A DNA stretch of 63,838 nt, the filler included, from Kipferlia bialata (taxonomy: Eukaryota), in assembly GCA_003568945.1 (NCBI GenBank). It is 5 parts of 5 records of this genome, joined end to end, with 100 filler letters (N's around TTAATTAATTAA, not from the genome) between each part and the next. Parts side by side here need not be neighbours in the genome. Positions count along the whole stretch, not along the records: positions 1 to 26,736 come from BDIP01000055.1; 4 more parts are not named here. One strand, given 5' to 3'. Below are positions 7,562 through 51,228 of the stretch, piece after piece (position 1 is the first letter of the stretch; the number at the start of each line of letters is the position of its first letter). The translations under genes were made by a program, and so were the position numbers. The notes beneath the pieces were generated by a model, which saw only the letters and a program-made list of their open reading frames with translations, ran no database searches and was not told where the DNA came from.

Positions 7562-7604
<43 letters not shown>

Positions 7605-8357: not shown

Positions 8358-8396
<39 letters not shown>

Positions 8397-9209
8397 ACGG
8401 GTGTAGAAGTAGACGGTGTCACGTATCTGGGGGTGAAAGGATATATATATATATATATAATAATATACAAATATATGCATATTTATATAGTGAGAAAGAT
8501 ACACATATGGGAGGAGAGAGAGAGAGAGACGAGAAATGAGGGGAGGGGGGAGAGAGAGAGAGAGAAGAGAGAACCGATATCTTGTCTCCAACGACTATAG
8601 TATGAGAGAGAGGATATATATATAGACGCTGAATGTTGTTTTGTTCTACACTATATCTGTACCTTGTCTCCAACGACCAGGTATATGTATGAATAGACAT
8701 ATAGATGCATACATATGCATACAGACATATGCATATATATATATATATATACACTGTACCTTGTCTCCAATGACCAGGTTGTCACCTGAGAGAGAGCATA
8801 TATATATATATATACACTGTATGAACTGTTCTACAATATATAGTAGTTCTATAGTATATAGTAGTGCATGTACCTTGTCTCCAATGACCAGGTTGTCCCC
8901 TGAGACACCAAGGGAAAAACCAACTGGGGGTGAGGTATATATCTATACATCTATCTATCTATATATATTTATACATATATGCCAACGAGGGACGTACCAA
9001 CTGGGTGTGAGACGACTATATATCAGGATATATATATATTCATCATCGTACTATGCAACATATACAAATATATATATATATATCACTCACTCACATGTGT
9101 GCGTGGAACCGCTGATGGAGGTGGGGGGAGCAATGGTGTCGGTGTAGGTGTAATCCCCAGTGGTGGCATCGCGGGTGTAGGTGATGACACTCTCTGGAGG
9201 GTCAGATAT

Positions 9210-12537: not shown

Positions 12538-12572
<35 letters not shown>

Positions 12573-15500
12573 CCCATGCCACACAGGCATCATTAAGTGT
12601 GGCAGCTACCACCACTCCTACCTGAGAGGTGAGGTATATATATATATATATGCCACACAGGCATGGTGAGAGTAGGCAGCAACCACTAAGCCAACCCATG
12701 GTAAGGGTGAGTAGTATATGAAGAGAGAGAGATAAAGATACATACACACACACATAATATACATATATATATATACTAATATATACATATGAATGTCTTA
12801 TGTATAAATATTCTAATATATATGTATGCACTCTATGCATACCGTTGTGACGTCTGCCGGTCTGCCCGGGTGGGGCACATTGCCCCCATGCAGCCAGGCC
12901 ACGATAGAGCCTAGAGTGAGGTACTATATGTACTATATATATACTATATATAGGGAGCATTGCCCCCATGCAGCCAGGCCACAATGGAACCTAGAGTGAG
13001 GTGCTATATACACTATATATAATATAGTGACAGAGTATAGTGTATATAGTACATTGCCCATATGAAGCCAGGCCACGATAGAGCCTGGGATCAAAGACTA
13101 TAAGAATATACTATACTGACAATAATAATAGGAATAGTAATAACGCAGCACAATAGTCCCATCATCAGAGTACATTATACATGAACACTACTCACCCTGG
13201 TTGACCCTCTGGGACATGGGTGGGTGCACAACCATATATACCAAATACACAATGTATATATAAAAATCAATATCATTATTAACATATATATATGTATACA
13301 CACCCTGGTTGACCCTCTGGGACATGGGTGGGTGGTGCACAAGGCAGTGGTTGCCTGGGGGTAAGTAAACACATACACACGATAACTATTAACTAGTATT
13401 ATATATTATTATACACATATATATATATATATATATATATAATTATTATACAGTAGGTGGTGCACAAGGCAGTGGTTGCCTAGGATAAGATGATGGGGAA
13501 TACATATATATGACGAATCGGCAGGGGGGAGGGGGATCTTTGATATCTACATGTAGTATCACACAAATATTTACATACCTAGCCCAGAGAGTGCAGCGGG
13601 TGTGTGGGTGATGCCTGGGAGGGACATCAGAGGGGTGGTCTGCACAGTGTCACACACGGCCTGATAGTTAGATAATATATATATATATATATATACATAT
13701 ATAATAGATAGTATATATAGATAGTATATATGGTATATCGATATGAGACATGAGGGGGTTGGTCTGCACAGTGTCACACACGGCCTGAGGGTAAATATAT
13801 ATATAAAAATGAAACAATATAGTATAAATAGCATATAGTATAGAAAGACATGTCATGGTGGTCTGCACAGTACACATATATAGTGTATATTATATATAGT
13901 ATATAAAGTGTATATATGGTATATATATATAGACATCAGAGGGGTGGTCTGTACAGTGTCACAGACAACCTAAGGGTAAGTATATATATATATAGAGATA
14001 TTGAGATAGATACTATATAGATAGTATATATATATGAGACATGAAGGGGGTGGTCTGCACAGTGTCACACACGGCCTAGGGTAAACGTATACAATAATGC
14101 ATACAAGGTATAGTATATCATACCCGAATGAGTGAGTGGTCCATGATGGACACAGCAGGTGGCAGATACTACACCATGTCATATCATATATAATACTTGT
14201 ATACAATATATATACATACATATATACATATATATACATATCTGCCTTACCCTGATCAACGCATGGTCCATGATGGACACAGCCGGAGGGAGGTACTACA
14301 CTATATGTATATATAATAGTAGTATATATGCACGTATATACTATATATCATACCCTAATGAGTGCGTGGTCCATGATGGACACAGCCGGAGGGAGATACG
14401 TCCTCCTGTCAGGCCGTACACAGAACGTGTTGACATAGGTGGTGACAAGGTCGAGGTAACCAACAACAGCCCTGGGGATTAAGGGTATAGAGAGAGGGGG
14501 GGGGGAGAGAGAGCGAGAGAGAGAGAGAGAGAGAGGCGGTGACAATATCCAGGTAGCCAACAACAGCCCTGGGGATTAAGGGTGTATGGAGAGAGAGAGA
14601 GAGAAGTAGAAGTATACCTGGTGCTGGGAGGGGGTAGGGGCAGGGGGTAGGCAGTGTCGTATCCGGATCCCCTAGCCCACTCTCTAGTCTCTGGCTGCCC
14701 AAAGAGGCGGACGCTCTTGATCCTGATGTAAACTACGCGGTTATACCCTGAAACTACGCGATTGTTCGATACCTGGTGTATGGGAACTGCCTGTCTGGCT
14801 TGTCGAACTGATCTGCCAGGGCACGGAAGAGAGTGGGGAACCTAACGCGTTAGTAATAATCCACATCAAAGGATATCTCTCAACATTGTATATCTAGTGT
14901 GTGTGTGTTTGTGTGTACCCACCTGTCTCTGTACTTGGCTATGCACTCCACGCAGTGTCTGCTGACAAAGAGGCCTCTATAGTATATGAATAGATGTATA
15001 TGTATACTATACATGTGTGTATATAGTATGTGATATACCTGTCTCTGTACTTGGCTATGCACTCCACGCAGTGTCTGCTGACAAAGAGGTCCCTGTCACG
15101 AATGGTCACAAAGCCTACACACACCCTGGGAGTGAGAGACCCAAGACCAAATACCTATGCATATTTGTGTATAGACGCAGAGCATCAGAGAAGACGCCAT
15201 GTTGTGTGATATGTATAATCCTACCTGATGTGGCCTCTCTCAAACCCTACCAGTAACAGTACCTATCCTATGCATATACTATACTCTATACTATATATAT
15301 ATATATATATATATAACAATGTACCTTATGTGCCCTCTCTCAAACCCAACCAGGTGCAGTCCACACTCAATGAAACAAATACGTATACATATATATTGAC
15401 AGTATCACCCAGTACTCGGACACATATAGCATCATATATGTATATATATATATATATATATATACCTGATGTGGCCTCTCTCAAACCCTACCAGGTGCAG

Positions 15501-16070
15501 TCCACACTCCCTCTCCTCCCCATCTGGACCCTCAATGCCAAGGGGGCCTGAGGGTGAGTATTACACTAATACATACACATATATATAACAGAGTAGATAT
15601 TCTATACATAAGAGTAGATACACTATACTCCCCATCTGGACCCTCAATGCCAAGGGGGCCTAGGATTAGTTATATATATGTGTGTATTTATATATGTATA
15701 TATATGATACTATTCATACACTATACTCCCCATCTGGACCCTCAATGCCAAGGGGGCCTGGGGGTGAGTTACATAGGTGTAACATTACATATATGTATAC
15801 GTATTAGAGTATTTATAGCATACGCCATATACTCCCCATCTGGACCCTCAATGCCAAGGGGGCCTGGGGGTGAGTTATATATATATATATATCACTGTGC
15901 ACCAACTATACATACACATCTGGACCCTCAATGCCTAGGGGGCCTAGGATTAGATATATAGATATATACATATATATACATAAATAAGAGTAGATACTCT
16001 ATACATAAGAGTAGATACACTATACTCCCCATCTGGACCCTCAATGCCCAGGGGGCCTGGTGTGAGAAAT

Positions 16071-16108
<38 letters not shown>

Positions 16109-17715
16109 AAGACAATATCAATGTATACTCCCCATCTGGACCCTCAATGCCAAGGGGGCCTGAGGGTGAGTAATGTATATATATATATAAGAGTAGATAC
16201 TCAATACCAAGGGGGCCTGGAGTTATGAGAATAGAACAATAACTAATGCATATATAGATACGTAATATAGTAATATAGCAATAACAATTATAGAAATATA
16301 TAGTACTATATAGTAAACATCATATATACATATATATATATATATATATACCTAGCATCCTCTGGAAGACTGGCAGTGGCACCCCAGCCTGCTGGGCACC
16401 TGTCCTGACGGTGTTAGTATCAGGATCTCATATATATGATGCAGATACTAATACAGGATCTACATATGAACATACTGATATATATATATATATATACATT
16501 TATATTGATACTCATACCTGACAGGCATGTACTCAGTCTGGATCTACATATGTACATATGTACCTATTGATACTGATACTGATATATATATATATATATC
16601 ATATATATTGATACTCATACCTGACAGGCATGTACTCAGTCTGACTACTGTGCATGGCCATATGTACATACTGATACTGATACTGATATATATATATATA
16701 TATATAAATACATATATATATATATATATATATACATATATATTGATACTCATACCTGACAGGCATGTACTCAGTCTGACTGCTGTGCATGGCCTTGTGG
16801 CGCTGTCTAACCCTGGGTGTGTCAGTAAACTACACGATTGTAGTAGAGTAAATCCAACAACACGATAGAGATTCTACACGGTATACCTTGAGGATAGGGC
16901 ATTAGCCAGGGTAGAGTAGGATGGCCCCTCTGTGGTTGCGTTGATGGAGCAGGAGCGCATGTATCTGGGTGAGAATATACAAAGAATATCCAACAACAAC
17001 AAATGCAATGAGTCTTGATCTAGAGGGGTTACTAGGGGGCCTAGTAGCATCAAATTAACCATTAATACTATTAGATTGATAAGGATATAGAAGAGTCTAT
17101 GTCCACATATGTACCCATATGTATGTGACGCCTGCGAGTCTCTAAAAAAGAATGCTGCGTATATATAATACAAATATAATAGACATACAATAGATATAGT
17201 ATACATATATAAACTAGTGGTCTATGATGTATGCGTACCCTGTGAGTCTCTCGCTGAGAGTGGTGTTGGGGTCACTCTCGGGGATGTCCTGGAGTCATTA
17301 CAGGTAGTGAAAGATGAAAGTAAGAAAGGTCAGGCTTGGTTGTACAGAAGACGCACTCACATATATATATATATATATAGGTGTTCTAATGCCCAGTCTC
17401 ATGTGTGTGTGTGTGTGTGTGTGTATGTACCTTGTCGATGGATATCACGCTGACCCTGACGGGGTGGGCCAGATTGATCATCTATATATGTATCTATATA
17501 TTACTATATATATAATATACATGCATTATCGACTGATATGGCGGATATATATATATATATATATATCTTATATATAGAGAGTATATATGTACCTTGTCGA
17601 TGGATATGGCACTGACCCTCACTGGGGTGGGTCCCTTGGCCAGATTGGCCACAACCACACTGCCCTTGGTCTGGGACAGGACCTAGGGGGGTTAGTTATA
17701 CATGTACTATTGTAT

Positions 17716-17748
<33 letters not shown>

Positions 17749-20700
17749 CTCATATTGATATATATATGCATGCATGGTGTATACAACCACACTGTCCTTG
17801 GTCTGGGACAGGACCTAGAGGGGTTAGTTATATATATATATACATATATATACATACTGCCTATAATACTATTTACATGGTTATATATGTGTATATGTAT
17901 CATATACAACCACACTGCCCTTGGTCTGGGAGAGGACCTAGCGGGGTTAGGCATATGTGTAAACACGTATCACATCATATGTATGTGTGTAATATATACT
18001 AAATACCTGTCTTGGATCCCTTGGCAGATTAGGGTGGCAGCTGAATGTGCACTCGTCATCCTCAGAGTCAGCACACATGGAGATACCGTACTGGGCCTAG
18101 GTTATCAGTCAAGCAGAACTACGCGATACGATGAACGACACTGATAATCTACGCGGTATGAACATGGTAAATCTACGCGGTTACCTTTGTGCCCTCGGGG
18201 ATGTCCTCCATGTGTGCAAAGGAGCACAGGGGCATGGCAAACACGCCCTGCAGATAGGAAACACGCTCAGCGTACTCGGCGGCGTACTTCTCCTGACTGT
18301 CAGTTTCTATTCGGCATGGTTTTAAGTATTCTACGCGGTTTGGAGTGTCCGTACCTTGATCCCGCTGATCCTGCGCACCACCTCGTTCATGACTGTCTCG
18401 ACACCTGCCCTGTCACCGTTGGACAGGGAGTGGGACTGGAGTAAGGGTATGCACAATATATATTGGAGGGGGGGGGGGGGTGACTGGGGGAAAGATGACG
18501 TACAAAAGAGAATCATACGGTTGCAGTATAGATAGTCACCGTACCTGCCGGATGAATGGGAATGCCAGGTTGGCCTTTCCCTTGGTGACATAGGGAGTGG
18601 AGGGGGGCACACAGAGGACATACACGTCGTCAGGGTTGTTGACAACACCTGATAGTCAGAACATCGCGTAGAAAGTGGAGCATATCGCGTAGAAACACAC
18701 CTCTGCTGTTGAGGTAGACCATGCATGAGTTGCGGCATGTGTCGTAAAGGTCACGGCACTGCTGAAGCTCGGGAAACACCTCCTGATGGTCAGTATGCAC
18801 TAATCCAGTATGGAGTGTGTCTATATCGTGTAGAAATATATATACCTCGTGGACCTTTGCCTTGCCCTTCTTCTGCTTCCTGCTCTTGGGGGCCATCACC
18901 ACACAGCCTGGGGTCAGAGAATATGTATATGGATCTATATATAATATAGTATATATACTTAGTCTATATATAGTATAGTATAGTATCATATCACCACACA
19001 GCCTGGGGTCAGAGTGTACATATAGGGAAAGAACAGATAATACCAGTATCATATACATATATACCCTACCTCTCTTGCATACGACACTGAGCACCCTGAC
19101 TGGCACACAACTGGCACATATTTATATATATACTAATACTAATATCTACTCATACATATATCTATACCCGTATAACCATATAGCTCTCTTGCACATATAT
19201 ATATATATATATATATATATACTCTACCTCTCTTGCACACCACACTGAGCACCCTGACTGGCACACAACTGGGCCAGAGACCCAGGGAGACAGTCGAGGC
19301 AGAGCCAAGACGGAGCTCCTAGAGATAAGAACTACACGATGTATACAATCGTGTAAAGAGAATAGGAAGAGAGACAGTGGAGGCAGAGCCTAGACGGAGC
19401 TCCTAGAGATAAGAATAGATAACTACGCGATGTTAATAGCCGTGTAGACTGACCAACATACCTGCCCAGTCTGCACTGTGAATGCCTCCACCAGCTTGTG
19501 TGCCATGTGTCTCTGCCTATCTATGCTGTCTATGGCCATATTCAACTCCCCAAGACTGTCCCTGATGACGCTGGTGTTGTACCTAACATAAGACAAACGC
19601 GTAGAAAGCTATATATATATATATCGCGTAAGTTTTGGTTATACCTGGGGTACATGCGCACTGTGTGACAGGGGTACTTGGTGTTGAGGTTGTTGACCTT
19701 GATGCGAGGCTTGCCCTGCAACTGAAGGCTCACGTCACACAAGGTCAACCTGGGTCAGATACAGTATCATAAAGGAAGAGCCTCTCATATAGACCTGATA
19801 TATGGTATACACAAGCACTACAATACATGTATAGAGTCACTCACTTTGGCAATGGGTCCTCGGGTCCCTTGGGGAAGTCAGTGCCGGCATAGCCTAAGGA
19901 TGAGAGGGATGAACTACACATTTGCTATTATAGCCAAGTACATACACACCTGTGACTCTAAACTTACAGTAGTAGTGCATAGACACATGCATTGTGTATA
20001 ATAATATTCACACATAAATATCATGCATACCTGTTGCGTATGCACACTCAGTAGTGCCACTGTATATATCTCTCTCCCTATATACTTGATGTATACACAT
20101 ACCTGTGACCGGTGTTGCATCTGCACCCACTGGGTATGTGGCACAGGGGGGGAAGGCGGTGCCTGGGGTGAGGGTCATAGGGTACTATATGAATACCTTC
20201 AGCAACCAATGAATATACAATAATACATATGAGTATATACCTTCGGCAATGAGTGCCCCGGAAGGGTATAGGGCAGGTGCCCTCCCCCCAGCTGTGTCGG
20301 CATGTCCGTATGAGGCAGGGTAGTGTCCATCGAAGAAGGGTGAGTCCAGGGAGTACACCAGAGACCGGTCAGAGACACCAGCGCTCCTCAGCTCGGGTAG
20401 CACATCCCCCTGGAAGAGAGCGGGGACAGACCTGAGGGGTAGTGAGGAACCGCGTAAGTTACAGTAATTACGCGATATATTCTATATCTTACCTATCTGT
20501 CACTGGGACTACTCTACCACCGTCAACGTGAACTCCGCTAGTGATTGGGCGTGTTGTGAAGAGGTATGTGTTGCCACATCTGTTAAGTAGAGCGGTGCGG
20601 TCATCAACCTCCTGGTGATGAGAGGATATACATTAGAACATATGCATATATAGATAAATAAATATTAGACAATTACACATATATACACAGCGGTTGAGGA

Positions 20701-22456
20701 GAGCGGTGCGGTCATCTACCTCATGGGGGGTGAGACATGCAGAATGTGTACATATATATGTATAACTGTATACCTTCGGTGCTACTGTAGCCAGTCCGTC
20801 TATGGCTGCGTCTAGGGCAGGTGACTCTCTCTCTCTCTCTCTTTATATATATATATATATATATGTGTGTATATATAAGTGTACTAGTGTATACCTTCGG
20901 TGCTACTGTAGCGAGTCTCTCTATGGCAGCGTCTAGGGCAGGTGACTCTCTCTCTCTCTCTCTCTCTATACATATATAAATATATGTATATATAAGTGTA
21001 CTACTGCATACCTTAGGTCCTACTGTAGCCAGTCCCTCTATGGCTGCGTCTAGGGCAGGTCAATATAGTATATGTATATATACTATTTTATACTATATAT
21101 AATGTACCTTAGGAGCAACTGTCTGCAGTCCCTCTATGGCGGCGTCTAGGGCAGGTGGTACACTATGTACATACAATATATATATAGTTATACAAATACA
21201 TATCACTATACATACCTTGGGTCCTACAGTAGCCAGTCCCTGTATGGCGGCGTCTAGGGCAGGTGGGGGCTGAAGGGGCACGTGGGTGTGGGGGGGCTTG
21301 AGAGAGGAGGAGGCGCTGTTGGGGTATCTCTGTCTAGTAAAGCTGGGGGTAAGAATGAATGTCTATGTATACATATGATATTGTGAAATACATAGTACGT
21401 AGCATGGGACACACGTGCCTGTTGTACTTCGCTGCATACTATATACTGTATACTATATACATACACGTACTGGTTGTACTTGGCTGCACATATGGACACA
21501 TAGGGCACAAGGTATACTCCGTACGAGTATATATGCAGATTGTGTACCATATATATAATAATGCATATATATAGACATATACGTACTGGTTGTACTTGGC
21601 AGCACAGATGGACACATAGGGAACAAGGGCACTGGGGGGGTTGTGCTCACTGGGTGTTAGAGGGAGTGTACGTAGTATAGGTATAGTACAGTACTACTTG
21701 TACATATATATATGCTATGTATAGTATATATACACTGTACAATAGGGCACAAGGACACTGGGGGGGTTGTGCTCACTGGGGTGAGACAATACGATACGAC
21801 ATATACATATGTATAAGTATACATTGAGAGAGAGAGAGAGAGAGAGTAGGGCACAAGGGCACTGGGTCGGTTGTGCTGACTGAGTGATATATGGAAAGAG
21901 AGTCATATACACAAATAGTACAGGGCTGTTCTCCCCTGAACATATCCATTTGTGAGATCTTAGGGATTTAGCTATAGAAATACAACTGTAGATATACCTA
22001 GATATGGTGATTGACTCGTGGAATGGTGCCAGGGGTGACATACACTCACACATACACACTATACCACTGAGATAGCCTAGCTATAGTACACACTATTATA
22101 TATATATACCTAGATATGGTGATTGACTCGTGGAATGGGGCCAGGGGTGACACAAAGGTGACCTCACTAGGCCACCCAGCCAGGATGTCTGGGCAGGAGA
22201 GAGAGAGGTTGCCGACCTGGGAATAAGGGTGTAGAGGGAGAGAGAGAGAGAGAGAGATCTAGTCTGGAGAGAGATATGCCGACATATTTGTAAATAAATA
22301 TACATATAGTATATATACACTATATACTATACCTTGTTCTTGTGCATTGCAGTGAGTGATGGACTGGGGCAGATGGATAGCAGTACATACAGAGTATAAT
22401 ACTATCACACACATATAATAATAGTAAGAATATAGTACCATGTTAATACCATAGAG

Positions 22457-22487
<31 letters not shown>

Positions 22488-23235
22488 ATATACCTTGTTC
22501 TTGTGCATGGCAGTCAGGGATGGACTGGGGCAGATGGAGAGTAATGCATATATACTACAGTATACTATACAATAGTATATACACACTATATACTATACCT
22601 TGTTCTTGTGCATTGCTGTCAGGGATGGGCTGGGGCAGATGGACAGCAGTACAGCCAGAGGGGGGGCAGGGGAGGAGGGCTCAAAGACATCAATGTCTGT
22701 CAGGTAGGCCTTGTCCTGATAATAAGGGTGTAGAGGGAGAGAGAGAGAGAGGGGGGGAGGCAGGAGGGAATAAAGGCATCAATGTCTGTCAGGTATGCCT
22801 TGTCCTGATATTAAGGGTGTAGAGGGAGAGAGAGATAGGCAGGGGAGGTCTCTATATACACATGTAGTCTCTCTACCTCTGTCTTCAGGAACAGGTCACT
22901 GGCAAAGGGGGCAGTGTTATGTACATACACAACATATATACCTGCTTACTGTCTATCCATACTAATATACTCTCAATATATATATATACTGATATACAGT
23001 ACCTGTGTCTTCAGGAACAGGTCACTGGCAAAGGGGGCAAAGATATGCATACGCATTATATATATAGTATAATGTCGATCTAGACATACTTTCTTGATAT
23101 ACATATTGAGAGAGAGAGAGAGAGAGAGAGTAATTGTACCTCTGTCTTGAGGAATAGGTCACTGGCAAAGGGGGCAAACCTCGGCTCAAAGTACTCTCTC
23201 CAGTGGGGGACACCGACCCTAGGAATTAGAGGGTC

Positions 23236-23281
<46 letters not shown>

Positions 23282-23954
23282 AAAGAATATATGCTCAAAG
23301 TACTCTCTCCAGTGGGGGACACCCACCCTAGAGGGGTTAGAGAAACATATACACACAAACATATATTATGGATTTATATATATATACTTGGATATGTACG
23401 TTACCTGAACCAGTAGTGCAGCACATACATATAATGAAACAAATTAATATATAACAAAATGCACTATATATAATATAAATTATATAATAAAAAATATGTG
23501 TATCGTATATCTACTAAGTGTATTCATGTATATATACACACCTGAACCAGTAGTGGAGCACATACACAGTCATCCGGACATACTGGCGGCGCAGGGACTG
23601 GAGGGGTCAGAGAGAGTCAGACAGTATGTACAGAGATACACATACACATACACGTTCACCGTTCACCGTTCACCGTACCTGGTGGAAGTCCCTAGCCTCG
23701 AGCTTCTGTGCCATTCTATCAGAGGTGCGCATGGCATCCCAGTGAGAGGGCTGAGGGGTAAGTATATTGTACACTTACATATACACACACATACAGATAT
23801 TTAGTAGAATGTACATACATATGTATATACACGTACATATATATGTATATATATATATGTATATAGTGCTATTCTGTCAGAGGTGCGCATGGCATCCCAG
23901 TGGGAGGGCTGGTATGAGTACATTTCCTATACACATACACACACATATATATAC

Positions 23955-23988
<34 letters not shown>

Positions 23989-25742
23989 GTATAGATATAT
24001 ATATATATATCTGTCAGAGGTGCGCATGTCAGCCCAGTTCGAGGACTGGAATTAGTATTCTTAAACTATAAATACACACATGAATTCATACTAGTATGAA
24101 TTAACACGTATTTATCAATATCTGTCAGATGTACGCATGGCATCCCAGTGAGAAGGCTAGAGTGAGACTATTCCTATACATACTATAAGTACCTAGATAC
24201 ACACACACACACAAATATATATATATATATATATGTATCCATACCTCCATGTCAGGCAGTGGCAGGCCTCACCACCATATACATACAAGTACAAACTACA
24301 TATATACATATATATATACATACACACACATATATATATATAAATATGAATAAATACCTCCATGTCACCGAGTGGCAGGCCCTGCCTCACCAGACACTCA
24401 CCCTCCAGCCAGGTCTCATCTGCCTGAAGGGGTTAGAGGGGCAGACATACTCATATATATATACCATATGTACCTGCACCCACGGGGCCTGGTCGAACTT
24501 CTGCTTGTAGTATAGTCTCCTCATCTCATTCATGAAGGATAGCCTGGACATGGCCTGCATCTCGTCAGGGTCACACCTAAAAGTCAGGAGGCGTATATTG
24601 TGTAGGAAAAATATGTAAATATACTGTCATACCTCTCCCTGACCTCCTTGGACAGCTTGTCTCCCTCTCTTTCTCTCTATATATATAGTCGTCTAATAAT
24701 CTACTAATGAACAGTATACAAATACTCAGTGCTCCACAATGGCCATACCTCTCCCTGACCTCCTTGGACAGCTTGTCATCGGGAATGCCATCGATCCTGG
24801 GGGTGAATTACCAAGTATAATAGTATAATATTACGTTCATTGACATCGATACCAACTAATACAATATAAAGGCATATGTACACAGTAAAACACGTATCGA
24901 GAGCAGTTTTGTAACATGTTCCTCTTGCGAGAACTCGTACTTTCTAGACTGAACACTCATAAGATACTACGTGAAGTGTGTCTCATACCTGTTCACCTCC
25001 TCCGAAAGTGTGTCTATCCACTCCCTCACAGGCTGGGGGACGTCTCTGGCATTCCTGGGGTCAAAGAGAAATATAGCTTACACGATATGTATGATACGAC
25101 TATAAATCCTACACGATGTATATGAATATCGCGTACTTTCTGTTCTTGATCTCCTTCTTGATGGACATGAGCTGGTCCGTGAGGAAGCCGACCTCCTGCA
25201 TGGCTGCCACACTCTGCAGCATCTCCTAAGGGGTTAGAACGTACACACAAATTGTAGAGGGATTAGTATATAGAGAGAGGTAAAGAGGCATATATAGAAA
25301 TAGTATACATGTATCTTGCATGGCAGCCACACTCTGTAGCATCTCCTAACAGTGAGTATATCTAGAATCATACTATACATATACTACATATATACCTGGT
25401 ACAGCTCAATGTTGAGGATGGTCTTGGTGGACCTGTATGCTATATATACTTGGTATATATACTATATAAACCATATACTATATATGTACTACAAATATAT
25501 ACCTGGTACAGCTCAATGTTGAGGATAGTCTTTGTGGATCTGTCCGTGAGGTAGAGACCCTTGGACAGGACCTTGTCCTTGTACACACTGGGGGTGAGAT
25601 ATATGTGTGTACACAATCAGATATGTACAATACAATAAGAGAGAGAGAGAGAGAGAGAGGAAGAGACCCTTGGACAGCACCTTGTCCTTGTACACACTGG
25701 AGGTGAGATATATGTATATGCATAAGCAAAATAGTCCATAAG

Positions 25743-25777
<35 letters not shown>

Positions 25778-26736
25778 ACACGATCTTGTCCTTGTAGACA
25801 CTGGGGGAGGGATAGACAATTTACTATATGAAACAAATGAATACAACAAAAGCATTTATAGATTGATGTAAGGGCTCGCCACATAGACTATATATACACC
25901 TGATGATTGACTCCAGTGCCCCCTCTCTGATTGTACTTACTATATGTTTATTTGAATAAAGTGTATATATATATATGTATGTACCTAATGATTGACTCGA
26001 GTGCCCCCTCTCTGATTGTATATAGTTCACACTATGTATACAAATACATCATATATTAATGAGTACTGTAACCAACCTGATAATTGACTCCAGTGCCCCC
26101 TCTCTGATTGAATACAGTTCACTATATACTAATTATCATTAAATATAATCATGTATATACCTGATGATAGACTCCAGTGCCCCCTCTCTGACTGTATGTA
26201 GTATAGTATAAAGTACATAGTAGCATACATAGCAGTAAACATAGTAGTATAGTATACCTGATAATTGACTCGAGTGCCCCCTCTCTGGTTGTACTATATG
26301 TATATATGTATAGAATATATATATATATATATATACACCTGATGATAGACTCGAGTGCCCCCTCTCTGATAGTAAAGCCAGGCAGAGGTGGGAGGAAGTC
26401 ATTGCCCACAGACAGACAGAGCAGAATGAAGTCATCAACCACACGCTCAATGTCTAGAGGGACTTGTCCCTAAGGTTAGTATATAGGGAGAGAGAGAGAG
26501 AGAGACAGAGCAGAATGAAGTCATCAACCACACGCTCGATATCAAGGGGCACTTGGCCCTAAGGTTAGTATGTTAGAGAGAGAGAGAGAGAGAGACAGAG
26601 CAGGATGAAGTCATCCACTACTCTCTCAATGTCTAGAGGGACCTGGCCCTTGGATAAGTATGTTGTATATGGAAAGATGGGAGGAGGGGGGGGGGAGTGA
26701 GAGAGAGATATATATATACCTCCGGCATGTCCTCTG
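10098..26736 (-). CDS. XRN1: 5'-3' exoribonuclease XRN1 (dozens of exons, 5' part lost at the contig end)
   Basis: XRN family motifs: DIERVVDDFILLCLSVGNDFLPPLPGFTIREGAL (26340-26469), YYKQKF (about 24500), YVLHYWFR|GVPHWREYFEPRFAPFASDLF (23140-23600) and PPLAVLLSICP. A long C-terminal extension ending in a Pro-rich exon with TGA at 10098 favours XRN1 over XRN2. That the whole span is one gene is inferred from continuous minus-strand exons. Confidence 0.88.
15518..16220 (-). repeat. Intronic exon-echo array: 7 copies of acceptor plus first ~10 codons of an XRN1 exon
   Basis: CCCCATCTGGACCCTCAATGCC(A/T/C)AGGGGGCCT occurs at about 15518 (real exon), 15630, 15728, 15833, 15918, 16027, 16130 and 16200, with TA-rich spacers. 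Confidence 0.92.
20771..21265 (-). repeat. Intronic exon-echo array: 4 copies of exon 3' end plus donor (PALDAAIxxLxTVxPK|GT)
   Basis: Copies at about 20771, 20891, 21008 and 21103, versus the real exon end at about 21214-21265. Confidence 0.92.
25897..26653 (-). repeat. Exon-echo arrays flanking the XRN1 GNDFLP exon (2 upstream 5'-end copies, 5 downstream 3'-end copies)
   Basis: GQVPLDIERVVDDFILLC copies at 26503-26558 and 26593-26648; REGALESII|GT copies at about 25898, 25983, 26075, 26158 and 26257. Confidence 0.93.
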
Positions 26737-26924: not shown

Positions 26925-29900
26925 ACCTGGTTCTGGAGCTTGGAGGCCTTGGACAGCACCTCATCCAGCTCTCCCTGGAGAGAGGTGGCACGCTCCCTGA
27001 GATCAGATAGAGGTGTATATATAGAGATATGATATGGCTATGTATAGGCATCATGACGAGTCGTATGGCACTACCTCATGAGCTGCTTGTCGTGCTGGGT
27101 GTTGGTCAGGCTGTCCTGGAGCACACGCTTGTCACGGGTGGTCTCCTCGACCTGCAGCTGCAGGGCACGCCTGTCAGACTCGGTACGGGCAAGGGCCTCG
27201 TTGAGCTCACCAACTGAGAGTGAGACATGAAAGAGGCATGTGCAGAGGATAACGATACTACTACCATTCGTAGACCCCTACCTGAGCCGTTGAGGTTGTC
27301 GATCTCTCCCCTGAGCTGGGAGACCACAGCATCGTGGCCCCTCCTGAGGCTGTCCTTCTCACCCTCGTACCTGACGGGTCAGTATCAGCCATACAGACAC
27401 ACCATATGTACTCCATACAATATTAATATACACGTAGTGTACACATACAACATGCACCCACCTCTCCCTGAGTGCAGCGGTGTCAGCGGCAGCCTGCCTG
27501 GCCTGGGGTGAGGCGGAGATATAAAACGAATACATCATCCATATGGTTATATCTGACAAGCAGTATATGTCACAACCACTCACGTTCTCGGTGACTGTGG
27601 CATCGTGGGCAGCAGCGGTGGAGCGCCTCTGCTCGGCGTTGCTCTCGTAGGTGTCTGCCAGGGTCCTCTTGAGAGACCCAATCTCGGCCTGGGCGTGCTG
27701 GTTGTCGATGGTGGCCTGGTCGAGGCGAGAGGTCAGAGAGGAGACCTGGGGTGACATGGGAGAAACAGGGGAAGGAGAGATATACCAATGAAGGAAGCTC
27801 AGTGTCCACATACAATACCAATTAACCCACCTTGGCAAGGGATGATGTGACTGCGGCGCTGGACTGGGCCATAAGCTCCTCCCAGGAGTCGGCGGGGGCT
27901 GTCTCCTCGGCTGTGATGCTCTGCAGAGACTCAGTCAGAGACATGAGCTTGTTGTCACGCTGGGCGAGGTCCTCCTCAAGAACGGCAATGCGGGCCTCCT
28001 GACAGGTGAGGCATGGCATCCATGTAGATATATATATACATGCATACCTTGGCGTCGACGTCGTCCTGGGAGTCGGTCAGGGTGTGCTTGGTCTTGGTCA
28101 GAAGGTCAGCGAGGGTGGTGATGCGGGTCTCGGCCATGGACAGGTTGAGCTGAGGGGTCAGACATCACGGGACATACACATACACACCCATCACACCCAC
28201 TGCCACCCCCTACCTTTGTGTCCTCGAGGGTGTCCTCGGTCCTCCTCAGGGTGGACTCCACGTCAGAGATGTGGGCGTCCCTGGCGGCGAGCTGGGCCCT
28301 GGTCTCCTGCAGCACACGCACGGTGTTCATGGCCTCGAGCACAAGCTCCCCAAGGGCAGGGGGCAGGGACCCGAAGGTGGTGCTGTCCTTGGCAACGGCC
28401 AGGGAGGCAGGGGTGCGCACGGCACCGGAGGTCTCGAGCCAGGCGTTGCTGAGGGCGTTGGTGCGGATGCCGACGCTGTCGTCGTTGACACACACGGCAG
28501 AGAGGAGAGCACGCACGGAGGTGATCTCGGCAAGGAGGCCGGAGGAGGCGTCGGTGGCCTCCCTGCTGGCAGTAGCGAGGGTGGTCTCGGTCTCAGCAAG
28601 GCTCTTGCTGGTCCTCTCGAGCTGCCACTGGGTGTCTCCCAGGCGGTTCTCGAGGGCCTTGCTGTCTGCCTTCTCAGAGGCCAGCTGCGACTCAACGGTG
28701 CACAGCTCGTCAATCCTCTCCCTGGCGGTGAGAGATGCCACTATATTGTGTGTAATGGGTGTTGGTGGTATATGGGTACCTGAGAGAGCGCATTGTGGCC
28801 TCCATGGCCTCGTTGGTCTGCTCGGCAGTCACACGCTCACGCCTGCTCCTCTCCAGGTCGGCCTCGGTGTCACCTGGGGGGTGAGAGGAGAGATATACCC
28901 AGTAACAGCTTTGTATGCATTAATCACAGCCACATACCGAGCTGCACCCTGGTCTGGGCGAGGTCCTCGCGCACGGAGTCGAGCTCCCTGGAGACAACCT
29001 CGAGGTAGTCGGACTTCTTCACAAGCTCAGGGACCTATTGGGTGAGGGAGAAAGGAAGGGAGGGCTGGGAGTCTGAGAGAGAGGGGGGGAGCTAGGGATG
29101 AGGGATGTGCCGTACCCTAGCAGCGACCTGTGCGGTCTCTGTGAGCTCTGTCTGGGAGTGGCTGAGCTGCCTCTCGAGCACTGCAATCTCCTCTTCCTTC
29201 TCAGACACAATGTGCTCGGTGGCAGCGGTCCTGGCATCAGAGGAGTGCTACACAACACATGTACATGAACAAACACACACACACACACCCTGTCCCCACC
29301 TGCTGTTGGCCTCCTGGGCCCTAGCCACAGCGGCCTGGTAGTCGAGCTTGGCCTCCTGAAGGTCCTGGGGTCAGATATACACTGTGTCACAGTGATAAAG
29401 GGAGTCATAGTATCAGTATACCTTGCGGACGGATGCCTCGACGGCCCTGGCCTCTGCAATGGCCTCCTGCCTCAGCCTCCTCTCCCTGGCCACATCGTCA
29501 TACGACTCAGACAGCCTGGGGTGAGCAAGGGGAGGCAGAGAGAGAGAGAGAGAGAGAGAGTACGGGCATACCTTGCCCTGAGGTCCTTCTCCTTCTGCTG
29601 GCTGGCCCTGCCCTCCGAGGACAGCTGCGACACAGCCACGCGGGAGGAGTCAACCTCACGCTGGGCAGCATCTATGGTAAGAGAGGGGAACAGAGGTGAT
29701 GTAGTGTGGAGTATGATCATGAGTGCCGCACCTGCCCTAGCGTTGGCCTGGCCAATCCTCTCCCTCAGGGCATCCATGGCACCGTTCTGCTCGGCAATCA
29801 CACGCCTGAGGTCTGTCTCCTGCTGGGCCTGCGGGTCAGATATGCATATACACAGACAGAGAGGGTAGAATATGGACATACAGGATGGTAGGGGGGGGGG

Positions 29901-30950
29901 GGGGTCACCTTGGAGTGCCTCAGCTCGTTGATCTCCCCGTCCCTGACGCGGACATCCATGGACAGCTGCTCAAGGCCCTAGGGGTAAGAACAGAGAGAGA
30001 CGTACTCGAGGTGAGGGCAATACACTGAATTCCTACCTGCTTGGCCCTGATGAGCTCGGAACGCCTCTGCACAACCTCCTCACGCACGCTCTTGAGATCC
30101 TGCACCTCACCTGGGTTCAAGGAGAAGCACCAAACAGATACCAGTCAATGCCATGACAGAGTATGAATGACAATGTAACACACCTCTGAGACCATCAATC
30201 TCACGGTCCTTCCCGTAGATCTCCGACTCGAGGCCCCTGAGGTGCTCGACGTGCTGCTGGGAGGCAAGCATGGACTCCTGGCGTCAGAGGTCAAGCACTT
30301 AACAAATTCAAGAGACCAATCCAAGTTCAACGCCACACCATCACTACCACGTGCAACAACCCTCACCTTGTTGATGAGCTCCTCCCTCATCTCCATGTGG
30401 TCCAGATCCACAGCCTGGGGGTTGACAGTCCGGGCCTCAGTCATGCGAGAGGCAGACAGGTTGGCAGAGGTGGCCCCAAGCTGGGAGCGAGAGAGGCTGG
30501 CACCAACGCCAGAGCCGCCATACTTGGACACCATGGACTCGTTCTGGTCCAGAGCGCGGCGAACGCGGGTGTTGAGGGGAGCTGAGGATGAGTCAATCAA
30601 GACCGAGGAATTGACACTATATCCAAAAGGAACAACTATACGAGGAATTAGAGGAAGATTTCCCATCATACTGTATTCATATAACACAAATACGCCCTCG
30701 AACCAGCACTAATGGACAGCTACAGCCAGATAACAAGAGAAGAAAACTGGAGAATTGGACACAACTCACAGAAACACCATCAAACACCACTAAAGTTTCA
30801 TATATGCTTCTGTATATCCCATATAACGTCGCATAGGCAAAATATTCACTCACAGTGCATTACTCCTTGCTTAAGGAGGCTATATGTAACTGAATTGGCT
30901 TCCATTGAGATAAACCCTCCTAGAATACTCGGAGTCAAAAACTTGTCCAT
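26925..30950 (-). CDS. Long coiled-coil protein, N-terminal portion, 3' truncated at the poly-G/linker
   Basis: GC-rich exons with heptad Ala/Glu/Leu/Gln character, e.g. ASLTARERIDELCTVESQLASEKADSKALENRLGDTQWQLE and EARIAVLEEDLAQRDNKLMSL. Introns are short and echo-free. The start is uncertain (candidate ATG about 30950). Confidence 0.7.
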
Positions 30951-31934: not shown

Positions 31935-32419
31935 ATGGTTCGTCAGTAGTCAAGGATGTGTTTCTCAGTGCCCATCTGTATTCTACACATGTCCCTCTCT
32001 CTATCTCATCCCCAGGGTCATGACATCAAGCACATCAGACGGGTGATGTATTGATTCCAGTATGTATAAACACATTATATATAGGCTATTACTACACTCT
32101 AACCCCCAGGGCCCACGACATCAAGCACATCAGACGCGTTGTCAAGACAGCCAAGCAGCTGTGCAGGAAGGAGGGGGGGAACATGGAAGGTGGGTATAGT
32201 ATTTATATGTCTGGTAGGAATAGAGTAATGTCTCTTCCACTCCCCCAATTGTTTCACCCCCTTTTCTGTGTCACTCTTGTCTGTCGGTGGACTCAAGTCT
32301 TGCCCCCAAGCGTAAGCACGAATGATGATAAGAGTGATATATGTGGGTCTGACCCCCAGTCATTGTCCCCGCTGCCTGGCTCCATGACTGTTACATCACT
32401 AGGTACAAGACATATATAT

Positions 32420-32454
<35 letters not shown>

Positions 32455-34600
32455 CAAATACATATATATTTATACGAACACATAGAGACACATAGAGAGA
32501 GAGAGTGCTGCTACAACACTAGGCACATGAGATGTATAGAGCTCTTGTATTTGTCTATAAATGTTACATCACTAGTCACTTGGTTTGTCTATTATGCAGG
32601 ATGTCTTAGGTATCAATGTATCTCATTTTCTCTCTCACATCAGGAAGGACTCCCCCCTCCGTTCCAAGGCATCGGTCCTGGCAGGTGATACATAAATACT
32701 ATATATATATATATGTGTGTGTGTGTGAGTGATTTATACTATTATTATTGATGAGTGTATGAGTTCAATCGCATACAAAATTTGTATCTGAATAGACAAG
32801 TGTGTAAGAGAATATATAATGTTTGCTTGTCTGACCCCCAGGTGACAGGGCCGTGGAGTACCTTAGATCCATAGCATACCCTGAGGAGCACCTAGATATG
32901 ACACATACCTACATATATATATACTATATATATACATTCAACATATATGTCCCCATCACTCCAGACAACATCCACCACTGCATCGCAGCCCACTCCTTCA
33001 GTGCCCAGATAGAGACAGAGACTTTGGAGGTACATATCTATATACATACAAGTGTATACATGTATCACTATATGCATGTATATGTTCATCCACTCCTTCA
33101 GTGCCCAGATAGAGACAGATACACTGGAGGTATGAGATGCAGTACTAAATGAAGTATATGTATGGGTGTGTGTTTGTATACAAGCTCCTCCATCCTTACC
33201 CCAGGCCAAGGTTGTACAGGATGCAGACAGACTCGACAGCTTAGGTATGGGCATGTATATATATTTATCTATATATCTATAACTGAATGTACATGTTTCT
33301 ATATATGTATGTGAATGATGCAGACAGACTCGACAGCCTAGGTATACATCACACATGTATATATGTATGTGATGGGCACATGTATATATGCATATGTATT
33401 AGCACCTATACGTACATACTGTCATTCTTGACAAGTCTCCTTACAGTAGGCGCCATTGGCATCACGCGTCCCACTCTGTGTGCTGCCTATATGAAATATA
33501 TACATATTTATATATGTATATGTATATACCTTATACCAGGTGCCATTGGCATCATGCGTGCCACCCTGTGTGCTGCCTCCATGCCAGGGGTATCAATGTA
33601 CAGTGACACAGACACATTCTGCAAGGGTGAGGGCTATTCAATTTTAGTACTACTCTGTTTCTTTCTCATATGTATACTGGTAGAGAGGATTGCATTCATA
33701 GCATTATGTACAGTGACACAGGCACATTCTGCAAGGGTGGGTCATATATATAGTTATATAGTATTACCGTATTTACTTATGGTATATATATACTGTAGTA
33801 GTAGTGTACAGTGACACAGACACATTCTGCAAGGGTGGGGGCTATTCAATTTTAGTACTACTCTGTTTTCTGTGCGGAGTATTCAGCGGAGTTGCAGCAC
33901 TATATATATACTATATATGTACTATACATCTATACTGTAGGACTAGGATGGTAGTTCTCAGTATCAGTATCAGTATAGATATAGTTTATATAGTATGGTA
34001 TAGATACTGATTCTGATACTGATACTGATACTGTAGGGCCAGGATGGTAGTCTTCTCTCCCTCTCTCTCTTTCTTTTGCTGTGTGTCTAATCCCCAGAGC
34101 GTACCCCCAATGACCGTCTGTACTCCATCGATCACTACTGGTGCAAGCTGCTCAAGTATGTCATAAATATATATATATATATGTATATATATATATGTAT
34201 GCATGTATGGTATGTGTATATATACTTGTAAGCCATCGATCACTACTGGTGCAAGCTGCTCAAGTGAGTGGTCTTATATATATATGTATATTGTATAATA
34301 GGTCCTCTTTAGGAACCTAGCAGTATATCCCTTTGAACCCATCGATCACTACTGGTGCAAGCTGCTCAAGTAAGTGGTCTGGCATATGATAATACATGTT
34401 GGCATATATACATAGTAGATCATCTACCAGCGTCGGTCATGGGAGAGTCGTAGTATTGACCGAGCATTTGCGTCCATAGACTTTCCTCTTAATAGTTTCA
34501 TAAGTATACATATATATGTATGAATCTATATATCATATTATTTGATACTAACCACAGGCTCTCCTCCACCATGAAGACTGTGAGTGTCCATTTGTATATG

Positions 34601-34633
<33 letters not shown>

Positions 34634-35204
34634 ATGTGTGTATCATAATATCTGATCCTTATCTTAGGCTGTCTTCCACCATGAAGACTGTGAGTGGCAC
34701 CGAGGAGGCAGAGAGACGGACAGAGTACATGCAGGTATATTATTCATATATATATATAGAGAGAGAGTGGGAGCGAATGGGAGAGAGGCAGGCAGAGAGA
34801 CGGACAGAGTACATGCAGGTATGATAGATATATAGATATATATAGAGAGGGAGAGGGAAAGGGAGAGAGACGGACACAGTACATACAGGTGCCATTGGCA
34901 TAAACATTGAATATATGCGGTAGTGAAAGTGACACAGTACATGCAGGTCAGGCAGAATTCTATATTTATGTATTATTAGGAAGTAAGAGGGAGGGATGGA
35001 CAGAGTACATGCAGTGGAGATACACATATGCACTTCTCCCTGCACATATCCACACAGTATCCACACAGTCCTGGTATTAATACCATTATCAATCTTTGTA
35101 TTTAGGTTTCCTATGGTCAGATATACCTAGATGTGTGTATGTGTGAGACCTAACCCCAGGGCTACCTTGACCAGCTTCAGACAGAGATTGGCAGTGGAGC
35201 ATAA
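31064..35204 (+). CDS. Sds3/BRMS1-like protein (Sin3-HDAC complex subunit family)
   Basis: Exons 1-2 read MSNQ...LYFDQAGEHLQKEIQQIEERNHPKMATLEAGAAMERDRRLAVAQLEYDYNVQLARNRLEVASETIK|ADYDVSIRNISDDLILHV, which fits the Sds3 pattern LY..rL..L..EL..l....HP....l....R..A...Y. The last exon, GYLDQLQTEIGSGA*, is 35160-35204. Confidence 0.6.
33320..35015 (+). repeat. Exon-echo arrays in introns of the Sds3-like gene
   Basis: TGTACAGTGACACAG-CACATTCTGCAAGG x3, CCATCGATCACTACTGGTGCAAGCTGCTCAAGT x4 and GACAGAGTACATGCAG-like x5. Confidence 0.88.
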
Positions 35205-35499: not shown

Positions 35500-38400
35500 A
35501 CAGTGTATACCCCCCTTCCTTCACTGCAGTCCGATTCTCTTGAGTACGGCCCGTAGGCCACGATATAAACTAAGTATATGGTATAGATAGGCCATGTATA
35601 ATCTCTCTCCATAATACCTTGAAGAAGGTGTCCAGCCTCCTTCCCATACTATTATAGTATTTAGTAATAGTGATGCAATGTGTATGCAATCTTCAGTATT
35701 ATACTATTATACTATCATACTGAATCAGTATACCTTGAAGAAGCTGTCCAGCGTCCTTCCCATGTACTTCGTTCAATTCTATAATAGACCCTTGTCTGTC
35801 TGCAAGTGTACTCTGCTATATTCAAACATATTTCGCTGAGAAACTATTATGAATAGAGACTGTGCTTCGTATAATTGCATGTCATCTTCTTGCAAAGTAA
35901 CATATATTGTACCTTCTTACAATATTTACCCATACTATGTAAATAGTGAATGGAGAGAGTATGTATAATCTATCGCCATCATACCTTGAAGAAGCTGTCC
36001 ACTGGACAGTGTCCAGCCACTTTAGCTGCAGCAATAACACACATATATATATACTAATTATATAGTATATAGAGAGAGCATGTATACACACTCTTCATAC
36101 CTTGAAGAAGCTGTCCAGCCTCCGTCCCATGTACCAGAGCTCACTGAGGACCATTGACTGTACATTGGCACAGGTCCTGGGCCTAGCTATGGTGTGGCCC
36201 TCAGCAGTCTGGGTGGTACTGGTGTAAGGTATCAGTAGATATATCAATAATAGGAAGGCATCGAGAGGTTGAAGTATATATTGTTAATAATATATATATA
36301 TAAGGACGTTTGATACGGTGTGGCCATCAGCAGTCTTGGTGGTACTGATGTAAGGTATGGAATTATTCAATAGTATGGTGGTGTAACTGGTGTAAGAGAT
36401 ATAGACACAACTACAATATTACAGAGTTTCATAAGACTCGAAGCTACGAGAAAACTGGGATGTTTGATCTGTACTAATGTGGTATTAGAATTGACAATTA
36501 GCTAATAGACTGTTTTATAGATATTACCTGTACAAGTCCGTCAGGCTGAGCTGGGTCCCATCACCGCTAACTCCATGCCTCTGGTGGTAGACGTGACGCC
36601 CCATGGACCCCATGCTCCTGGAGGTCTGTACAAGCGGAACTACACATTGCAGGGTGGACAGATTGGCCTCTGTTGGTGAGAAAATACTTCAATTAATATC
36701 CTGAGTATAAGTTCAATAATTCCCTCTTAATATGTACTGGGAGAATCAGAAAAGAGTGAGTGCGTACCATTCCCCGACCACAGTGTGAGCAGTCTCCAGA
36801 TAAATATCCTATATATATGTATTACATTCACACTATACTAAAATATGATACAAACTTAGTTATATATCTTATATATTGGCTACGTACCGTTCCCCGACCA
36901 CAGTGTGACCAATCGCCAGAAGGCCAGCAGTGCAACCATGTAGTCACCCTTGTGGGAGTGGAAGGAAGACACCTGGTGTTAGTATACATAGTAAGGGGGC
37001 ACTTATGATATATACATACATATTTAAGAGAAGAATACAGTGATACTGAAAATTATGAAGACTCATCTTCTGTACAAGTGCCTTCACTGTGTCCCAGCAA
37101 AGTGTGTAGAAACAAGACAATGAAGTTTCCAAGTATTCTCAACCTTGTCTACTATTAGTACTATACACCAACCTTCCCTACAAGTGCCTTCACAGTGTCT
37201 GGTGTACATGTCTGAGTTGCGGTGGACTCGGAGGGGGACTCTTAGGGTAAATGGGTGGGGTGAGACTTCTGAATATTCTCACAGACTACAAACCCAACTT
37301 AGGATGTGATTACGACTGTACGACTCCTACGTTCGATGACTGACATGTTGAACAGTAACAGGGAATAGATACGAACTATGGAGTAAGCATAAATTACTTA
37401 GTATACGTTCCAATATCATAGACCTGAGAGACCCCTACCTTCGATGACAGTCATGTTGAATAGCACGGTGGCAGCATGGCCAACAGATAGGGGGTCTAGC
37501 GACTTGAGGAGCAGTACCTGGATGTGAGACACTCAGAGATATATTTGGAAAGCCCAATCCAGAGTTGCTTCTCAATAGCAGACAGCTCGCACTCTCTTCC
37601 GCCATACTTGAAATTCATGTCTTGAATATGAGAGAGAAGAATGAAGGTTACAGTGTAACCATAGGTTACACCCACCTCTGTCACTGCTGCGTGTATATCC
37701 TTGTGGTACTTGGGTGGGAGTGCTAGGCCTGAGAGTCAGATGTACAGTTCTATCTTGCGTAGCAAGTATCTCTACATATATTACTGATAGGATCACTATA
37801 ACAAGTCTGTCTGCCGCATTGTCTGTATGCACAATATACAATGAACAATATAGACATTGCGAACTGATACATTGTCTCTACCTTCCTCCTTCACAATATG
37901 TGTGCACGTGTCTAGCAGGGTCTGGACCATGAGTCTGCGTGTTGTTGAGTGCCAGGTGGTACACTTCTGCACAGCGCGTGTGAGGGACCTAACAAGAGGC
38001 ATCAGGAGAGACTGGGTCATGGGAGGTACTGACGTGAGTGTGGGTTAACTACATATACTAGCACAACTATCCATAGCAGATGAGTACTGGTGTAGGGCTG
38101 GGATACTGCAATTTGAAGTACTCAATATGTGCACCTCTTTGAGCCAGAATCCTCAGCACATAAGTGCCCTCTGCCACGGCCTGATGGGTAAGTACTACTT
38201 TACTGAAATATCTTACCGTACCTTGAAAGTATAGGGATATAATCTGGTGTTGTAAATTGGAATACGCGTATAGTACTGTATCGCATGGTGTACATACTAC
38301 GTACCTGCATGTCTGCTTACGATTATAATACTACTAAATAGTAGTCCCAAACAAATACTGGTGTAATACATATGAATCTATGCGTGTCTAATAGTACATT

Positions 38401-51184: not shown

Positions 51185-51228
<44 letters not shown>

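Follow-up and report, generated by a model that had tools for sequence, protein, structure and literature searches.

Untranslated DNA that obeys the genetic code calls for explanation, and an array of three copies of an exon start in the genome of Kipferlia bialata (GCA_003568945.1) raises exactly this question: why do partial copies of exons, lying in introns, differ from these exons mainly in silent ways? We analyzed the array within a window of 63,838 nucleotides, the whole stretch under study, composed of five joined parts. The partial exon copies are referred to as echoes below.

An XRN exon with partial copies at both ends

The array at 26414-26653 (minus strand) lies in a gene which, judged by its sequence, is an XRN-family exoribonuclease. 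The 131-nt exon matched Pfam XRN_M (E = 1e-13) and 14 PDB XRN sequences comprising XRN1 and XRN2 chains, the best PDB match being an XRN2, and its GNDFLP motif contains an aspartate that we take to be catalytic. A second Pfam match in the gene was weak (E = 0.018); among 23 further exons, 21 had no Pfam match and none matched an XRN1-specific family. The 1547 modeled codons and the ∼975 nt lying upstream in an RNA-type contig fit the long C-terminal extension of XRN1. The gene had been called XRN1 in the preliminary description; the family assignment stands, and XRN1 rather than XRN2 is likely by length. A homolog search with the 43-residue exon returned no match, a HMMER protein search returned 1497 XRN-type proteins (best identities approximately 50–72%) with no close relative among them, and a metagenome pattern scan found three loci, all of them unrelated XRN genes. 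A further observation from the metagenome is an unrelated XRN gene (L001:1037-1737 and L002:911-1611) with many in-frame TAA/TAG codons and 25% GC, which probably uses a reassigned stop code.

Table 1. Coordinates of the XRN exons, their echoes and the other genes of the window.
Position	Strand	Feature	Evidence or remark
26339..26469	-	real 131-nt exon of XRN-family 5'-3' exoribonuclease (start of Pfam XRN_M; DxERxxDD...GNDFLP)	RNA-type contig, Pfam, PDB
26720..26736	-	3' end of preceding exon (EDMPE, GT donor), cut by gap, in frame with real exon	no contig piece listed over it
26648-26595, 26558-26505, 26469-26416	-	cores of echo 2, echo 1 and real copy	two further shared bases each give the limits of the preliminary description
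26503..26558	-	echo 1: first 18 codons of exon after own AG acceptor, 6 silent differences	DNA contig, depth 390; without RNA cover
26593..26648	-	echo 2: first 18 codons of exon after AG acceptor, 7 silent differences	DNA contig 26609-26695, 0 differences; without RNA cover
26470..26502	-	intron half of repeat unit at true acceptor: (CT)n tract, CTAAC branch-like motif, AG in use
26559..26592	-	intron half of echo-1 unit: (CT)n tract, unused acceptor almost identical to true one
25900..26293	-	five copies of 3' end of 131-nt exon, own GT donor each: 26258-26293, 26161-26196, 26077-26108, 25985-26020, 25900-25935	one DNA contig; absent from RNA-type contig
25657..25800	-	two 5' echoes of next exon: 25777-25800, 25657-25696	skipped by RNA-type contig
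25503..25587	-	next real exon, 85 nt, joined to 26339 in transcript; own 3' echo 25396-25436
10098..26736	-	XRN gene: 47 exons modeled without echoes, 1547 codons open to stop, all introns GT-AG; 69 echoes at 28/47 exons
50019..57023	+	EF-hand gene, which we take to be PP2A B''-like: 20 echoes at 11/27 exons	ab initio, hand-corrected
58272..62527	-	coiled-coil-like gene: 13 echoes at 8/19 exons	ab initio
32110..35200	+	gene with 14 echoes at 7/11 exons (1 of 11 a boundary placeholder)	ab initio
35618..38901	-	3' part of long gene: 8 echoes at 5/11 exons (1 of 11 a boundary placeholder)	ab initio
6870..9193	-	gene with 5 echoes at 3/6 exons	ab initio
26935..30534	-	internal control: GC-rich coiled-coil-like gene, 0 echoes in 18 predicted exons

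Read on the minus strand, the 18 residues GQVPLDIERVVDDFILLC are common to the real exon start, echo 1 and echo 2, and every difference among the three copies is silent, so that our comparison confirmed the central claim of the preliminary description. Six bases differ between the real copy and echo 1, seven between the real copy and echo 2, and 11 between the two echoes, which differ silently in 10 of the 18 codons. The union comprises 12 variable sites in 11 codons, all 12 of them silent; the 13 differences counted earlier included codon 1 twice. The silent share expected for random changes in this segment is ∼24.5%, which gives P = 5e-8 for 12 of 12 under free decay and P = 1e-5 when the constrained exon is taken to have contributed half of the changes; a window-wide count is the fairer test, as this array was chosen by eye among 129 echoes. 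A degenerate pattern for the 18-codon segment found three matches in the window and none in 100 shuffles.

The tandem repeat at the exon start has a period of 89–90 and 2.7–2.8 copies, with a unit made of the intron end with its AG and the exon start. Echo 1 and echo 2 both break into (CT)n at the exon's ...CTCTGTCT, which resembles the CT tract, as had been claimed of them, and both end short of the conserved GNDFLP motif. The real exon is echo-1-like in the acceptor region and codon 2, carries echo-2 states only at nt 7-24 (five consecutive codons, nt 9-21), and is echo-1-like again thereafter. It is an echo-2-type patch inside an echo-1-type exon: of the mosaic described before, with echo 2 on the left and echo 1 on the right, the mixed states remain and the clean halves do not. 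A runs test on these patchy states gave P = 0.024, and a six-copy array at the opposite end of the same exon showed four-gamete conflicts in two of three informative site pairs. Some shuffling, the sound part of the recombination or conversion signature proposed earlier, is therefore present, and the patch at nt 7-24 possibly arose via conversion from echo 2; an exon built from these echoes in cis is more than three sequences can demonstrate, because a recombining allele pool predicts the same patchwork.

Contigs, which lose rare forms, were taken from two runs of one sample and compared with 25380-26736. One run, not on record as RNA, was treated as such since its contig skips a GT-AG intron; the DNA run contained 94% of sampled 31-mers of 19000-28800. 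DNA contig depths were 380 for the exon body, 367 for the exon start, 390 for echo 1 and 289 for echo 2, with junction contigs at 289–411, and the depth of the exon body was single, not summed over copies. These depths indicate that the echoes coexist with the exon start instead of substituting for it and that they are not minor alleles, and the equal depths of echo, start and body contigs argue against echo haplotypes that continue as complete exons on separate molecules. Repeated 31-mers were found only at 26414-26418 and 26503-26507. Three features of the contigs follow to the base from these positions: where the exon-body contig stops (26443), where the exon-start contig begins and how long it is (26419, 114 nt), and where the echo-1 contig begins. 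The 114-nt contig fits the predicted 26419-26532, from the exon start through the CT tract into echo 1, by start and size, its repeat part being outside the displayed alignment, and we infer the link between echo 1 and echo 2, in a repeat beyond direct coverage, from the lengths of the contigs. A 583-nt DNA contig reproduced 25786-26298 with its five downstream echoes at 0 mismatches. Over 25380-26736, the DNA run had no listed variants and no collapsed joint among its contigs, two joints at repeats being left out of the listing.

The single RNA-type contig (5629 nt) carries the real exon over 26344-26471 with 0 differences and none of the echoes. It jumps the 751-nt intron (26339 to 25587) with its seven echoes and enters the real next exon. 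Downstream of this junction, the echo-free model measures 4413 nt vs 4438 nt in the contig, that is within 25 nt, and skipping of echoes elsewhere in the XRN gene rests on this agreement of sizes. The echoes are real tandem duplications across splice sites, skipped by the dominant transcript; the idea that they are recodings in use did not survive this result, and the array also has no AG/GT route into the exon.

Census, splicing and codon-level signature of the echoes

A total of 129 echoes were found at 62 of 121 modeled exons in six genes, 69 in XRN and 60 in the five others. The supposed speciality of the active site is contradicted by this spread, as it is by echoes that stop before GNDFLP. 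The detector was nucleotide-only; with a milder mismatch penalty, the XRN background was 15 matches in 1849 non-adjacent exon pairs vs 69 in 90 adjacent pairs. The XRN model was hand-curated, the first automatic model having taken echoes for exons, and the other five gene models were ab initio and hand-corrected, without RNA check, 2 of the 121 exons being boundary placeholders. The census was limited to the window and excluded the gene at 44560-48820 and the regions 1-6800, 43000-44300 and 62800-63838; it also omitted exons 1–12 of the 22 predicted for the gene at 35620-42080, and the initial exons of the gene near 9590.

Classified by geometry, the 129 echoes comprise 55 exon starts upstream, 61 exon ends downstream and 13 internal copies, with none at the wrong end and none of a whole exon; 116 are anchored at a splice site, the median length is 31 nt and the largest copied fraction of an exon is 0.68. 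This geometry suggests that the copies are those short tandem duplications after which a single intact exon remains innermost. Among the 116 break points, nine lie in CT/AG tracts, 67 are merely AT-rich and 40 are of other kinds, so the microhomology of the first array may not be general. Divergence of echoes showed no clear trend with rank from the exon. Median intron length in XRN is 327 nt with echoes vs 78 nt without them. The control gene at 26935-30534 has a GC3 of 0.81, a median intron of 68 nt and an intron GC of 0.48; GC3 and intron GC in the adjoining XRN gene are 0.69 and 0.31, respectively.

Several further observations were made along the window. At 15547-16216 (minus strand), the start of one exon is copied seven times upstream, in most cases with a strong acceptor, and the echo-free model uses only the last. 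Five 27-nt in-frame pseudo-microexons bounded by AG...GT lie at 25900-26284 (minus strand); a simple gene finder takes them and many other echoes as exons and outputs repeated peptides. Gene finders that mistake echoes for micro-exons in this way would inflate intron counts and invent repeated peptides. An apparent in-frame exon at 32842-32895 (plus strand) is followed by AT, not by a GT donor, which may be a non-canonical site, an assembly error or a lost real copy. The reading phase of the EF-hand gene breaks at 51187-51280 (plus strand) by a long poly-C run, and an exon is probably missing from the assembly. A 15-nt tandem repeat with 17 copies, encoding an acidic repeat, lies in a long predicted exon at 40213-40467 (minus strand). 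The gaps 26737-26836, 49012-49111, 57440-57539 and 62687-62786, often by long G/C runs, all consist of 44 N, a 12-base AT spacer and 44 N, and are scaffold padding.

Splice dinucleotides are kept in nearly all echoes, AG in 53 of 55 upstream and GT in 59 of 61 downstream copies; the echo sites score below the real ones (P = 2e-4 and 6e-7) and far above the intron background. Splicing uses the innermost sites, namely the most downstream acceptor and the most upstream donor. A seamless AG/GT route, by which an echo could replace an exon end, exists for 4 of 129 echoes and for none in the 26414-26653 array, and in 108 of 116 cases the reading frame would be shifted or interrupted by a stop if an echo site were joined to its real partner. 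With so few seamless routes and so many disrupted products, constraint most likely acted elsewhere than on the echoes in place. The echoes are most likely not translated in place, minor isoforms being beyond the view of contigs.

Mismatches between echoes and exons fell on codon positions 1, 2 and 3 in the numbers 48, 28 and 169. There were 155 silent and 72 replacement codon changes and no stops (pN/pS 0.14, pS ∼0.17). Second positions differed at 28 of 1330 sites (2.1%) vs 129 of 677 fourfold sites (19%), a ratio of 0.11, or 0.12 with shared array changes merged (P = 2e-13 against 0.5); a neutral-decay simulation with the same detector, in which the echo changed freely and the exon only silently, gave 0.50–0.54. 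Mismatches between echoes showed the same positional pattern (22/19/92), and 53 unique single-base replacements were conservative (BLOSUM62 +0.34 vs -0.65, P = 5e-5, in a model without the mutation spectrum). Gene by gene, XRN (0.095) and the EF-hand gene (0.16) showed the most pronounced bias, and three genes in which changes were few showed less of it (0.33–0.65); pN/pS was 0.24 outside XRN (60 echoes) and 0.16 in XRN with a milder aligner. The 131-nt XRN exon is the extreme case, with 22 silent and no replacement codons over seven echoes under the strict aligner, and with two replacements, at the broken edge of 3' echoes, under the milder one.

Other properties of the differences bear on their origin. 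pN was flat (2.0–2.8%) across pS bins, which is weak evidence because the echoes are short, and silent differences were Poisson-like across echoes. Intron halves of the units had an identity of 0.32–0.50 beyond 10 nt from the splice site (background 0.27–0.32) and were near background past 15–30 nt. Shared variable fourfold sites were two-state in 44 cases vs three-state in three (3/152), adjacent silent changes were clustered (38 vs 24.5 expected), and 49 of 129 echoes had no third-position difference. The fourfold differences included 95 transversions and 34 transitions, with 37 G-C swaps and a slight AT drift (37 vs 28), unlike simple decay in AT-rich introns.

Origin of the echoes

We consider it somewhat better than an even bet (about 0.55) that the echoes were copied from, or are still exchanged with, other functional alleles in a highly diverse population that recombines. 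Recombination or repair out of register between diverged homologs would connect a site within an exon to an intron tract of low complexity (in this array CT) via microhomology, and this slipped exchange would place the exon end of one allele beside the complete exon of another. Selection would then remove all products except those with one complete innermost exon, which exon-definition splicing could read correctly. Under such a scheme the copies would be young as junk (at most ∼2% decay) and old as alleles (∼17–19% silent divergence), and later unequal exchange could expand, shuffle and collapse the arrays and may leave patches like that at nt 7-24. The differences between echo and exon resemble those between alleles in their pS and pN/pS, conservative changes, two or three states per site, four-gamete conflicts and patchiness; similar divergence throughout a pool would give the flat pN and the Poisson-like silent differences that were seen, and three-state fourfold sites together with four-gamete conflicts fit more than two source haplotypes. 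In amphioxus, the two authentic BflGb6 alleles differ at five silent codons and mirage copies of haplotype 1 carry haplotype-2 states, as far as can be judged by eye from supplement 4 of PMC3087553.

Several results weigh against allele capture. No second allele, isolate or close relative was found in the DNA run (at single-copy depth), the metagenome scan or the protein search. The needed silent diversity, ∼0.17 overall and 10 codons in 18 between echo 1 and echo 2, is, to our knowledge, at or above the top of the range for eukaryote populations. The reading is also weakened by the higher pN/pS outside XRN, by the two edge replacements under the milder aligner, by the scarcity of CT/AG breaks, by contigs that drop rare isoforms, by the use of one sample, and by five of six gene models without RNA check. 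According to PMC8516963, NHEJ is lacking in metamonads, and no argument here rests on that.

The same silent divergence might come from a one-off hybrid, in which two diverged genomes met, their chromosomes were homogenized by repair, and fragments of the haplotype that disappeared stayed behind in introns through slipped repair. Uniform, Poisson-like divergence, mostly two-state fourfold sites and the lack of present heterozygosity in the DNA contigs of 25380-26736 agree with such a history, which we nevertheless regard as unlikely, since three-state sites and four-gamete conflicts occur, arrays hold up to seven differing copies, and echo 1 and echo 2 depart from the exon at different sites.

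Less likely still are live templates in cis, a reading in which conversion or collapse of echoes into the exon at the DNA level, perhaps through a dedicated process, is so frequent that the echoes are a direct target of selection and form a library of silent variants. The echo-2 patch, the four-gamete conflicts and the clustering of adjacent silent changes would be expected, and amphioxus mirages are unstable according to the part of PMC3087553 available to us. By reasoning, however, if exchange within a clonal line were rapid enough to clear replacements, the 17–19% silent divergence would disappear as well, and no collapsed joint was listed in the DNA contigs, from which rare forms are dropped and two repeat joints are left out. 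At lower odds again we place the general proposal that genes with AT-rich introns keep an untranslated library of synonymous recodings beside most exons. Frequent recombination, possibly of a dedicated kind, would transfer these recodings to the expressed exon, and selection would thereby act on DNA that is never translated in place.

Translation in minor isoforms, with echoes kept by selection as alternative or mutually exclusive exon parts, is improbable. The retained splice dinucleotides, site scores well over the intron background and the in-frame AG...GT 27-mers among the 3' echoes that a gene finder accepts as exons speak for it; they are set against zero full-length copies, the rarity of seamless routes, disrupted frames in 108 of 116 cases, an RNA-type contig free of echoes and echo sites weaker than real ones. 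Ordinary duplicates in neutral decay, with a silent excess due to changes in the real exon, would explain the geometry, the skipping by splicing and the 49 echoes identical at third positions without further assumptions; this account is nonetheless highly improbable, because it predicts a ratio of ∼0.5 where 0.11–0.12 was observed, predicts neither conservative replacements nor silent echo–echo differences, and would need a rate of change in intronic copies several times below that of silent sites in exons, the opposite of what the intron halves show. Least probable of all is an assembly artefact with haplotypes of a mixed culture placed end to end: the assembly is a draft, gaps adjoin the locus and the DNA run, perhaps the window's own source, is not independent, but contigs reproduce the junctions at equal depth (289–411), one spans five echoes, the exon body has single depth, and the run contains 94% of the sampled 31-mers.

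If allele capture is true, one genome carries samples of the allele pool of its species, silent diversity (∼0.17) and cryptic sex or parasex become readable from a single isolate, and the origin of mirage repeats becomes testable at hundreds of loci. The arrays, in which splicing picks the innermost of up to eight near-identical sites, also offer a natural test of exon definition outside animals.

Comparison with known boundary repeats and tandem exons

Mutually exclusive tandem exons are complete copies, each with its own acceptor and donor and each expressed. The echoes share with them neighboring coding copies and a silent-biased divergence. They differ in that 0 of 129 are whole, the largest fraction being 0.68, and in that only real exons occur in the one RNA-type contig, where rare forms are possible; the echoes therefore do not fit this class.

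Intron gain according to the Rogers model proceeds by tandem duplication of an AG/GT segment (in the summary given by PMC3087553), and the raw mutation, a short intragenic tandem duplication, is the same as here. No new intron was found at 26414-26653, where the AG/GT route is absent, as it is in all but four of the 129 echoes, and intron gain was rejected. As a separate observation, the last 11 bases of the intron at 10779-10923 (minus strand) are identical to those of the exon before it, and GT follows both, as would be expected if tandem duplication had given rise to the intron; this intron has two possible acceptors 3 nt apart.

In human F7, the first unit of the 37-bp VNTR in intron 7 spans the exon–intron boundary, downstream donor copies are functional but silent, and the most upstream donor is used, according to the part of PMC1557585 available to us. 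The 3' echoes likewise leave the most upstream donor in use. As far as that source goes, the F7 repeat concerns one locus, identical pseudo-sites and donors only, whereas the echoes include acceptors, of which the most downstream is used, and have diverged with regard to codons.

The closest structures are the mirage minisatellites of amphioxus, described for Adh3, the globins BflGb6 and BflGb9, troponin C and PGBD5, with copies 80–100% alike in the exon half (available parts of PMC3087553 and PMC3902484). In both systems tandem units span the exon–intron boundary at either end, AG/GT is duplicated and spliced mRNA is undisturbed; here the unit has a period of 89–90 at the XRN exon start, 116 of 129 echoes are splice-anchored, and dominant splicing is undisturbed, minor isoforms being out of sight. 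As for concerted evolution within clusters, some states are common to echoes and four-gamete conflicts occur, but intron halves fall near background past 15–30 nt. Unlike amphioxus mirages, the echoes occur at 62 of 121 modeled exons of an apparently unrelated eukaryote, with intron halves nearly unalignable, and unlike the BflGb6 copies, in which a stop, indels and replacements can be seen by eye in supplement 4 of PMC3087553, they show protein-level constraint and no stops. Codon bias of mirage copies is not discussed in the available parts of PMC3087553 and PMC3902484, and our literature search, which had most subscription journals outside its reach, found no report of silent-biased partial exon copies, of such density or of protein-level constraint, although older mirage papers may mention codon bias. 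The structure of the echoes is already known from mirage repeats and the F7 VNTR; their density and the protein-level signature of selection are unusual.
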